From: a virus
Reading direction: 5' to 3' (one strand)
Virus record (IMG/VR): IMGVR_UViG_3300029778_000003
Span: 1 to 60,904 of that record
DNA: 60,904 nt
Part shown: piece after piece, positions 59,641 to 60,627 of the stretch
Position numbering within the stretch: the first letter of the stretch is position 1
How the letters are laid out: every line of letters begins with the position of its first letter
Program-made: the position numbers and the translations under genes
The notes under the pieces: model-generated
Told to the model about the DNA's origin: nothing
The model's input: the letters and a program-made list of their open reading frames with translations, nothing else
Databases searched by the model: none

Positions 59641-60627
59641 ATGAATTTTGACAATTACTCTTGTGATAATCAAATGAGCATATTTGACTTCACAAGAGAA
59701 CCAATTAGCATAACAAAGCCTATCCGCTTGATAGAATTATTTGCCGGCCACGGCAGTCAGGCAATGGCACTAAAGAGAATAGGCGCTAAATTTGAGCATT
59801 ACAGAGTTGTGGAGTTTGATAAGTATGCCATAGCAAGCTATAACGCAGTGCATGGCACAGATTTTCCTACAATGGATATAACTAAGGTTCATGCAGAAGA
59901 TTTGAATATCTGCGACACAAATGCATTCACTTACTTACTTACTTACTCATTCCCTTGTACGGATTTATCAGTTGCCGGAAAACAAGCCGGAATGTCTAAG
60001 GGCAGCGGTACAAGAAGCGGTCTGTTGTGGGAAGTTGAGAGAATACTAACAGAAATCAGAGATAGCAACGGAGAATTGCCACAGATTTTATTCATGGAGA
60101 ACGTGCCACAAGTACATAGTCAGGATAATATGCCCGACTTTAGAAAGTGGCTAGATTTCCTTGAAAGCCTTGGCTACACAAATTACTATCAAGACTTGAA
60201 TGCTAAAAATTATGGTGTAGCACAAAATCGTGAAAGATGCTTTATGTTTTCATTCCTAGGTGAGTACAATTATCATTTTCCACAGCCTATACCACTCAAA
60301 AAGAAGCTGAAAGACTATCTTGAGGATAATGTAGATGAAAAGTATTACATCAACAATGAAAAGGCTGACAAGCTGATAAAACAGCTTATTGACAACGGCA
60401 CATTACCACAACACAATCTTGACAGACAGACAGACAGACAGACAGACAGACAGACAGACAGACAGACAGACAGGCAGACTTGTGTTGACGGAACAATCAA
60501 TAAGCCACAGCAGAGAGAAGTTGCAAACTGTATCAAGGCAAGATATGACTGTGGAATATCAAACTTGCGGTCAGAGGGAAACTTGGCTGTTAAAGGATAT
60601 GGGAGAGACAGCAGAAAAACAGATTGA
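59641..60627 (+). CDS. DNA (cytosine-5) methyltransferase, N-terminal catalytic segment (motifs I-VIII), (DRQT)5 linker and first TRD-like module; frame then breaks
   Basis: ELFAGHGSQ (I), SFPCTDLSVAG (IV, catalytic Cys), FMENVPQ (VI), AQNRERCFMFS (VIII), then ANCIKARYDCGISN. Continues in other frames to 60904 and on to 1-799. Confidence 0.88.
   Translation: MNFDNYSCDNQMSIFDFTREPISITKPIRLIELFAGHGSQAMALKRIGAKFEHYRVVEFDKYAIASYNAVHGTDFPTMDITKVHAEDLNICDTNAFTYLLTYSFPCTDLSVAGKQAGMSKGSGTRSGLLWEVERILTEIRDSNGELPQILFMENVPQVHSQDNMPDFRKWLDFLESLGYTNYYQDLNAKNYGVAQNRERCFMFSFLGEYNYHFPQPIPLKKKLKDYLEDNVDEKYYINNEKADKLIKQLIDNGTLPQHNLDRQTDRQTDRQTDRQTDRQTCVDGTINKPQQREVANCIKARYDCGISNLRSEGNLAVKGYGRDSRKTD
60421..60472 (+). 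repeat. Tetranucleotide microsatellite (GACA)13 inside the C5 methyltransferase ORF
   Basis: Counted by hand. Followed by imperfect ggca gact. Currently in frame, encoding DRQT x5. Confidence 0.95.

Follow-up and report, generated by a model that had tools for sequence, protein, structure and literature searches.

We analysed a 60,904-nt stretch of viral DNA (IMG/VR record IMGVR_UViG_3300029778_000003, positions 1 to 60,904; hereafter the window), which carries a phage C5 methyltransferase locus interrupted by simple-sequence tracts. The whole window is a circular contig with an exact 123-nt terminal overlap (1-123 = 60782-60904) and a unique length of 60,781 nt, and the locus crosses the circular junction to end at position 799. 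Its non-triplet simple-sequence tracts inside the open reading frame (ORF) are a (GACA)13 array (simple sequence repeat 1, SSR1), a run of nine G (PolyG1) and a run of eight G (PolyG2). Among close relatives, the lengths of these tracts are polymorphic far above background substitution, and the lengths found include ones that change the reading frame. We consider it likely that this is a three-tract contingency locus in a split, multi-module methyltransferase. Its parts are as follows.

59641-60420, plus strand: gene 1, catalytic N-terminal part of the C5 methyltransferase (PF00145)
59740-59757, plus strand: motif I, FAGHGS
59950-59970, plus strand: motif IV, FPCTDLS
60097-60114, plus strand: motif VI, ENVPQV
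60223-60243, plus strand: motif VIII, QNRERCF
60421-60479, plus strand: SSR1, perfect (GACA)13 at 60421-60472, then GGCA-GAC
60480-60627, plus strand: frame A (current), with the module A core ANCIKARYDCGISN at 60523-60564, a short tail and TGA at 60625-60627
60479-60709, plus strand: frame B, an open linker LVLTEQSISHSREKLQTVSRQDMTVE overlapping module A, then module B and TAA at 60707-60709
60486-60488, plus strand: TGA stop of frame C, two codons past SSR1 (LR*)
60632-60664, plus strand: module B core, AATLRARDYKG, followed by ...GVIEWKN
60686-60804, plus strand: start of gene 2, with GGAG at 60686-60689 and ATG at 60697 (7 nt past GGAG), overlapping the frame-B stop (ATGGAAAAACTAA)
60770-60778, plus strand: PolyG1, G9, out of frame; lengths G8 and G11 would give ...EKVLRGG-ICPTLRANK (module C)
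60779-60897, plus strand: module C core ICPTLRANKTSSGVIE and N-terminal part of module D VMVDVNVIGSLESKFESTNRIYDV
117-124, plus strand: PolyG2, G8, out of frame; G7 would read ...RIYDVGG-CSPTL
125-799, plus strand: distal part of the enzyme (ORF 77-799, stop at 797-799)
125-157, plus strand: module D core, CSPTLSTMQGG
254-289, plus strand: module E, LCPNITTVEGGG
416-448, plus strand: module F, SNCLTSVQKDN
533-565, plus strand: module G, ISANLVAGTHG
602-640, plus strand: motif IX, RKLTPRECGRLMG
707-721, plus strand: motif X, GNSIV

Gene 1 matches Pfam PF00145 (E=6.4e-48), its residues 29-261 falling on positions 2-227 of the 324-position profile. It aligns to M.HhaI residues 12-220 and to the Mycoplasma enzyme M.MpeI, the best match in the PDB. 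Across the locus as a whole, motifs I, IV, VI, VIII, IX and X occur in that order with a variable region between VIII and IX, as in C5 methyltransferases, but they lie in differing frames. The motif I residue that is Tyr (FAGYGS) in at least 90% of 54 aligned relatives is His in the window (FAGHGS).

SSR1 lies between motif VIII and the variable (target-recognition) region. Tandem Repeats Finder (TRF) scored it as 14.8 copies at 60421-60479 with 96% matches, and it is the only tetranucleotide array of more than about 5 units in the window. A 20-nt GACA pattern had 0 expected matches in 100 dinucleotide shuffles. The tract encodes (DRQT)5, amino acids 261-280 of the 328-aa ORF 59641-60627. Because 4 x 3 = 12 nt, the same hydrophilic peptide is encoded in every frame. 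These results bear out much of a preliminary description of this DNA, made without database searches, which had reported thirteen perfect GACA units, the (DRQT)5 translation, a position after motif VIII (motifs I-VIII are upstream, at 59740-60243) and no other array of this length. It had also proposed that changes in unit number shift the frame before motifs IX and X. The tract does shift the frame among relatives, but the ORF stays open for only 49 codons past SSR1 and already stops at 60625-60627, ahead of both motifs.

The three frames downstream of SSR1 have different contents. Frame A, the current one, carries module A and then stops. Frame B, which would be reached with one GACA unit fewer or two more, runs through the linker into module B. 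Frame C, reached with one unit more or two fewer, is a null phase. BLASTP aligned nothing of module A with module B, and it took a profile-profile comparison to show that the two are paralogous (hhalign probability 77%, E=2e-5).

Gene 2, as assembled, is only 35 aa long (MEKLTDAIG...KSQ*), because the G9 run shifts its frame. Relative to the N-terminus, SSR1 and module A (frame 0), module B is in frame +1 and the start of gene 2 again in frame 0; past the runs, module C and the start of module D (ICPTLRANK...RIYDVGG) are in +1, and modules D-G with motifs IX-X in +2. Replacing G9 by G8 at PolyG1, and G8 by G7 at PolyG2, would each restore the frame. The C-terminal part repaired in this way matches PF00145 profile positions 236-322 (E=3e-9). 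The window begins 3 bases past the G9 run and ends inside the G8 run, its last bases (60898-60904) being the first 7 G of PolyG2, which suggests that the assembler broke the contig at the two homopolymers. ORF 77-799 is the only ORF with motifs IX-X; its first ATG is at 107, with no obvious ribosome-binding site upstream. With SSR1 in frame A, and G9 and G8 both out of frame, the enzyme in the window is most likely OFF, because no normally initiated polypeptide carries motifs IX-X. Thus, the picture of a single intact ORF, currently ON, does not hold: motifs IX and X are two frame shifts away from the N-terminus, behind G9 and G8. The on/off switch of the preliminary description also proves too simple, given that two poly-G tracts vary as well, that the enzyme is split, and that the two non-null frames encode different paralogous modules.

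Seven TL-type modules (A-G) are readable in the locus, and relatives hold differing subsets of them in mosaic fashion. Both G runs lie directly 5' of the C/SPTL core of a recognition module (C and D). Past each run, both wrong frames reach a stop within 53 nt. An ATG in the module frame follows PolyG1 at +51 in 27/27 haplotypes, with a GGAG 11 nt upstream of it, and follows PolyG2 at +21 in 38/38; in the window these candidate internal starts are at 60830 and 146. As a layout, this is compatible with termination-reinitiation that would give shorter second subunits.

Length variation of the three tracts

We surveyed 80 IMG/VR loci and 73 human-gut loci from ENA with a tract at the same site. 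Two ENA contig names are duplicated with identical tracts, apparently the same site fetched twice, and most of the IMG/VR contigs have one dataset identifier in common. SSR1 was resolved in 67 IMG/VR loci (66 and the window) and 58 ENA gut-metagenome loci, and unit number in related contigs, a comparison that had been proposed from the sequence alone, ranged over 10-86 nt (2.5 to 21.5 units) and covered all three frames, an outcome that leaves the preliminary idea of a frame-shifting tract unrefuted. The downstream frame was B in 61 loci (49%), A in 39 and C in 25, which departs from uniformity (chi-square p 4e-4, or 0.023 on 97 unique loci) with phase C under-represented. The called products of relatives are mostly 260-365 aa long and end after the repeat in one of three ways: CVDGT...module A*, LALTEQS...module B...GVIEWK*, or LR*. 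Contigs end within SSR1 in 12/80 IMG/VR and 12/73 ENA loci, many of them after exactly 55 nt of repeat, as a k-mer assembler behaves on a longer or heterogeneous array; such breaks hint indirectly at switching.

The unit itself is not constant. In 8 IMG/VR loci and several contigs of metagenome-assembled genomes (MAGs), (AGCAG)n, encoding SRAEQ repeats, replaces GACA. A homologue of 62% identity has at least 11 copies of (GAACAGA) at the site, and locus L090, at 69% identity, has (GACA)19. Units of four, five and seven nucleotides therefore occupy one and the same site, and a frame-shifting repeat has been maintained while its unit sequence changed.

The G runs vary as well. PolyG1 is 5-10 nt long in 41 loci, and 11 nt in one near-isogenic genome described below. 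PolyG2 is 5-9 nt long in 71 loci, with a mode at the in-frame length G7 (33/71), and in-frame lengths are enriched at this run. The commonest pair of lengths (PolyG1/PolyG2) is (8,7), in which both runs are in frame (9/35).

Comparisons of near-isogenic genomes place the differences in the tracts themselves. The phages are mosaic: when loci were grouped by 3 kb of upstream sequence, no more than three near-identical pairs emerged, and shorter flanks were used. Six IMG/VR loci with at most 3 mismatches in flanks of 775+250 nt have SSR1 lengths of 30, 42, 42, 46, 62 and 66 nt, PolyG1 lengths of 6-9 and PolyG2 lengths of 6-7. Over 3374 nt, public contig L125 and the window are 99.7% identical and share exactly the same 58-nt SSR1, including the GGCA interruption; two of the three indels are the poly-G runs, which are G7 in L125 against G9 in the window at PolyG1, and G7 against G8 at PolyG2. 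Furthermore, four samples encode an identical 342-aa gene 1 product, differ by 0-2 substitutions over 3.8 kb, all have an 18-nt SSR1 and lack the PolyG2 module. They differ internally only at PolyG1 (G11, G7, G8 and G7), and their gene 2 calls are 259, 31+214, 258 and 31+214 aa, respectively.

Across about 100 loci, all frame breaks are at SSR1, at the fixed -1 gene junction, at PolyG1 or at PolyG2, and no nonsense or frameshift lesion was found outside the tracts; stops were absent from the module frames throughout. Judged from these sequences, SSR1 is a hypermutable frame-shifting tract and not a fixed linker.

Conserved three-frame design and gene split

The arrangement of the frames is retained whatever phase a locus is in. 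Frame C stops after two codons in 71/71 loci. Frame B runs without a stop to GVIEWK(N)* in 70/71, whatever the current phase, over 58 codons or more and typically 75-76, and frame A is open for 38-48 codons before its stop. Across relatives, modules A and B keep a fixed offset from each other, and the frame-B stop overlaps the gene 2 ATG with a fixed -1 shift, at MEKLTDAIG junctions and at homopolymer-free MEVIGS junctions alike. At least 7 different alleles occupy the module B position. In L090, the modules come in the opposite order: one frame leads from the repeat into a B-type module, the second through an open linker into an A-type module, the third stops immediately, and the same -1 junction comes after the modules.

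The two overlapping frames both bear marks of constraint. In the 81-nt overlap of modules A and B, diversity is concentrated at frame-A third positions (pi 0.163 vs 0.048 and 0.037); module A therefore evolves as a protein under purifying selection. Frame B has no stop in this overlap in 52 haplotypes. At two Ile codons ATA, and at two Val codons GTA, would be synonymous in frame A but put a stop into frame B, and these alleles were never seen. At a neighbouring site, where it does frame B no harm, ATA is nevertheless the usual codon for Ile. Between the two G runs, the module C/D frame has no stop in 12 haplotypes, whereas both other frames always hold stops. Diversity in module C and the stretch between the runs (8 and 12 haplotypes) was too low for a codon-position test to measure selection. 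The runs themselves look selected, to judge by codon choice. GGG makes up 7.5% of Gly codons in 20 long ORFs and GGG-GGG is used in 0/35 other Gly-Gly pairs, whereas both poly-G runs are GGG-GGG; moreover, these two are the only G runs of at least 7 in the window.

The gene split is likewise conserved. In near-isogenic genomes, an independent gene caller reports a 342-aa gene 1 product and, for gene 2, a protein of 258-259 aa (PF00145) whose gene overlaps gene 1 by 13 nt. The split layout, with motifs I-VIII on one product and IX-X on the other, is present with frame B and an in-frame gene 2 in 13 relative loci, against the 35 aa of gene 2 in the window. There are also full-length relatives of a single chain, in which the same modules are joined in one frame (L007, L024, L039, P0031, P0033, P0035 and P0096), and in some of them the repeat is down to one unit and module A has been deleted at a GCAGAG microhomology.

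Two other ways of joining or reshuffling the parts were considered and rejected. A -1 ribosomal frameshift at the near-slippery heptamer G_AAA_AAC (60700-60706) would fuse gene 1 to gene 2. Termination-reinitiation is the simpler reading, because the MEVIGS-type junction has the same offset without a slippery site and because the gene junction's A5 run does not vary (32/32 loci). The sole fused database protein, P0050, has A6 instead of A5, and a -1 shift in the window would give its sequence (GVIEWKKLTDAIG). An inversion shufflon of the hsdS type was also considered; no inverted repeat of at least 10 nt was found in 59600-60904 and 124-900.

Some relatives carry foreign segments near the repeat. 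In P0045, a Type I HsdS-like specificity domain (PF01420) takes the place of the sequence right behind the GACA repeat, and in P0043 a PF13651-type segment does so. P0093 carries an inserted HNH/NUMOD homing endonuclease upstream of its repeat. These arrangements suggest that the repeat serves as a recombination boundary for unrelated cargo.

Interpretation and alternative readings

In the contingency-locus reading that we favour, slipped-strand mispairing during phage or prophage replication would change the unit number within populations. Each change would move the ribosome into frame A (module A, then a stop), frame B (linker and module B) or frame C (null), and each poly-G run would independently put gene 2 in or out of frame. 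The overlap of the frame-B stop with the gene 2 start would allow translational coupling. [quoted passage not shown] The payoff would be bet-hedging, as methylation would guard the phage against Type II restriction and expose it to methyl-dependent (Type IV) restriction.

Several observations weigh against this reading. Slippage within populations is deduced from differences between assemblies, and the pairing of subunits is argued from the analogy with M.AquI. The module specificities and internal starts are likewise predictions from the letters of the sequence, and an AlphaFold2 model of the single-chain relative P0096, built on a 54-sequence alignment, was unusable (mean predicted local distance difference test score, pLDDT, 44). 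The contigs of public collections are non-independent samples. Illumina miscalling of long G runs is possible; it is an unlikely source of a 5-11 nt range, and GACA variation is left unexplained by it. PolyG1 is in frame in 16/41 loci, which is not above one third, and gene 2 is broken at a poly-G run in about two thirds of assembled relatives. Finally, SSR1 phase shows no association with gene 2 status (intact in 8/31 loci in phase A, 13/44 in B and 8/22 in C), which counts against the reading because a single selected ON state predicts one.

These last results are what would be expected of a decaying, dispensable gene whose repeats are mutational hot spots of neutral length variation, as is the fact that three or four tract changes would be needed in the window to restore a full enzyme. 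We nonetheless regard decay as improbable. Against it stand the lack of lesions outside the tracts in about 100 loci, the purifying selection on module A and the open frame B, the deficit of phase C and the in-frame excess at PolyG2, and the GGG-GGG codon choice contrary to genome usage. So do the repeats of 4, 5 and 7 nt that diverged homologues have at this one site, the recurrence of the three-frame design with swapped modules, and the presence of in-frame G8 and in-frame G11 in isogenic genomes. A plain binary switch deserves somewhat more weight but is still rather unlikely. In it, only frame B, coupled to gene 2, would be active, frames A and C would both be OFF, and module A would persist through recombination with single-chain alleles. 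Frame B is indeed the commonest phase, the gene 2 start is overlapped by the frame-B stop only, and single-chain relatives that use module A (L024, P0096) could maintain it. Yet the protein-level selection on module A is seen in the split loci themselves, phase A is commoner than phase C (39 vs 25), gene 2 has its own GGAG-ATG start, and the distant relative L090 retains two alternative-frame modules in reversed order.

Two further explanations fare far worse. An artefact of sequencing or of assembly, in which short-read assemblers had collapsed or miscalled the repeats, might be suspected from contigs that often break in the tract, many after 55 nt, and from window ends that coincide with the poly-G runs. 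It is effectively excluded by the recurrence in L125 of the exact 58-nt tract with its GGCA, by resolved tracts that are shorter than typical reads, have clean flanks and span 10-86 nt, and by 5-nt and 7-nt repeat alleles that errors could not produce. A flexible (DRQT)n linker of variable length and no frame-shifting role would suit a peptide that is hydrophilic, identical in all frames and placed between the catalytic domain and the variable region. We give it practically no credence, since unit numbers differ by non-multiples of three, all three frames are seen, and many called proteins end in LR* right after the repeat.

The contingency-locus reading can be taken a step further, to a more tentative form. 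SSR1 could be a three-position selector that attaches one of two paralogous modules in overlapping frames, or none, with the poly-G runs removing modules C and D through restarts at the ATGs 51 and 21 nt on. We think this possible but doubtful. If true, one locus would give combinatorial methylation specificities among the progeny of a single phage, and overlapping-frame modules behind a repeat would be a new, recombination-free route to changed methyltransferase specificity.

Phage setting and known systems

The window is the genome of a human-gut Lachnospiraceae prophage that is siphovirus-like, about 60.8 kb long and, as assembled, circular, with terminase, portal, major head and tape-measure genes and a G+C content of 38.5%. 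The phage is temperate. Its methyltransferase gene closes the early/replication block, with two genes directly downstream.

1114-1578: excisionase (xis)
1667-2854: integrase (int)

This position beside xis and int would suit phage self-protection at least equally well as regulation of the lysogen. Prophage copies of relatives lie within contigs of 85-233 kb, and two prophage contigs from binned genomes were assigned to Lachnospiraceae, one being a Roseburia MAG. IMG/VR holds 402 stretches encoding a relative; the protein search scored thousands of homologues, and the relatives found by it are gut contigs of 55-62 kb. A DNA search of GenBank phages with the locus gave Dulem virus 39 at 71% identity, two short Streptococcus phage matches and no cultured close relative. 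Dulem virus 39 was also the best match, at 52%, among the matches listed in the phage protein search. A look-up of the exact protein of the window ORF gave no record.

Other repeats and genes of these phages are recorded here as separate observations. A 27-nt tandem repeat (45882-46419; 19.9 copies, 95% matches) in ORF 45523-46662 encodes in frame about 20 copies of SSGD(Y/S)A(K/Q)IG; the ORF has weak PHROG matches to tail-fibre-like repeat proteins, and the repeat number may vary between relatives. Iteron-like arrays (53985-54130) of 11 nt x 4.8 (TGGTTGCCATG) and 15 nt x 5.4 (AGGATAGTAAAGATA) lie in the DnaD-like replication-initiator ORF 53638-54423 and are probably the phage replication origin. 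A cluster of tRNAs for Gln, Asn, Ser and Cys near an RtcB-type RNA ligase (PHROG E=2.5e-128; 12318-13169 and 17098-18450) suggests that tRNAs cut by anticodon nucleases of the host are repaired or replaced. Just past the integrase, short direct repeats TGTGTAGTAA at 2847-2867 and 3080-3101 are candidate attP arm sites, and in relative L172 a bacterial rimP gene follows the integrase. At the contig end of L058, about 1.8 kb past the repeat site, a 12-nt tandem unit ACCATCAGACGA in about four copies may be a further assembly-breaking repeat among related phages.

The closest parallels to the switching proposed here are phasevarion enzymes, namely Type III mod genes with tetra- or pentanucleotide repeats in Haemophilus, Neisseria and Moraxella, and Type I hsdM/hsdS genes that bear SSRs (PMC5909438, PMC7383803). 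There, too, an intragenic non-triplet SSR slips and shifts the methyltransferase frame, and recognition-domain alleles vary between strains. Phasevarion enzymes, however, are N6-adenine methyltransferases from the chromosomes of bacterial pathogens; each gene has one tract, control is ON/OFF, and regulation of host genes has been demonstrated. The locus in the window is phage-borne, of the C5 class and has three tracts, with SSR1 between catalytic core and modules and with two frames that hold alternative modules. Nearer in enzyme class are the phase-variable CpG C5 enzymes of Mycoplasma, whose tract is poly(G) of 6-11 (M. agalactiae) or poly(GA) (M. pulmonis, M. crocodyli; PMC9465063). They share the mid-gene SSR and a truncated form in most strains, but are chromosomal orphans of one specificity, with one tract each, a homopolymer or a dinucleotide repeat, and neither split genes nor alternative-frame modules have been reported for them.

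The split itself has precedents in the two-subunit C5 enzymes M.AquI and M.EcoHK31I, and in fragment complementation of M.SssI and M.BspRI (PMC3404938). In enzymes of the M.AquI type, as in the layout of relatives with frame B and an in-frame gene 2, the large polypeptide carries motifs I-VIII and the proximal variable region, the small one the distal variable region and motifs IX-X, and the genes overlap. The splits of the known enzymes are fixed and without SSRs. A tandem-module architecture is reportedly typical of the C5 enzymes of the temperate Firmicute phages SPbeta, phi3T, rho11s and SPR (work of Trautner and Noyer-Weidner), which are said to combine one core with several tandem modules between motifs VIII and IX for self-protection, in single uninterrupted ORFs without SSRs. 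The window likewise comes from a temperate Firmicute phage, and its putative joining of a catalytic core to tandem recognition modules, like its multispecificity, is suggested by the repeated TL-type modules. SPbeta-type enzymes were not among the matches listed in the phage protein search.

A full-text literature search found no SSR-switched methyltransferase described in a Firmicute phage, no SSR-switched C5 methyltransferase carried by a phage, and no alternative recognition modules in overlapping frames behind a repeat; the preliminary impression that such a switch was not known for a temperate Firmicute phage agrees with the literature searched. The phage lineage is abundant in human gut metagenomes. 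If its tracts switch, these phages would diversify their own epigenetic coat in every burst, as a counter-defence against mixed methylation-sensitive and methylation-dependent restriction in Lachnospiraceae. Such a trade-off is on record for 5-methylcytosine, which blocks some restriction and invites methyl-dependent restriction (PMC12707154). Note that gene callers label loci of this kind as truncated or multiple methylase genes, and that assemblers break or circularise contigs at the tracts.

Among phages, contingency loci are known from A-tracts in T2 agt and T4 rIIA, with T2 agt toggling to escape modification-dependent (Type IV) restriction (PMC12633550), and poly-G tracts in Campylobacter phage receptor-binding proteins are described as well (Sorensen 2021, as cited in PMC12823448). 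These loci share with the window a hypermutable SSR and a bet-hedging logic, and T2 agt is likewise a DNA-modification gene. They consist of short homopolymers in virulent phages with simple ON/OFF outcomes, whereas the locus in the window combines a long tetranucleotide array with two G runs in a temperate gut phage, and its frame architecture points to more than two states. Should the tracts switch as proposed, phage contingency loci would extend from the homopolymers of coliphages to long tetranucleotide arrays in temperate phages of the gut.

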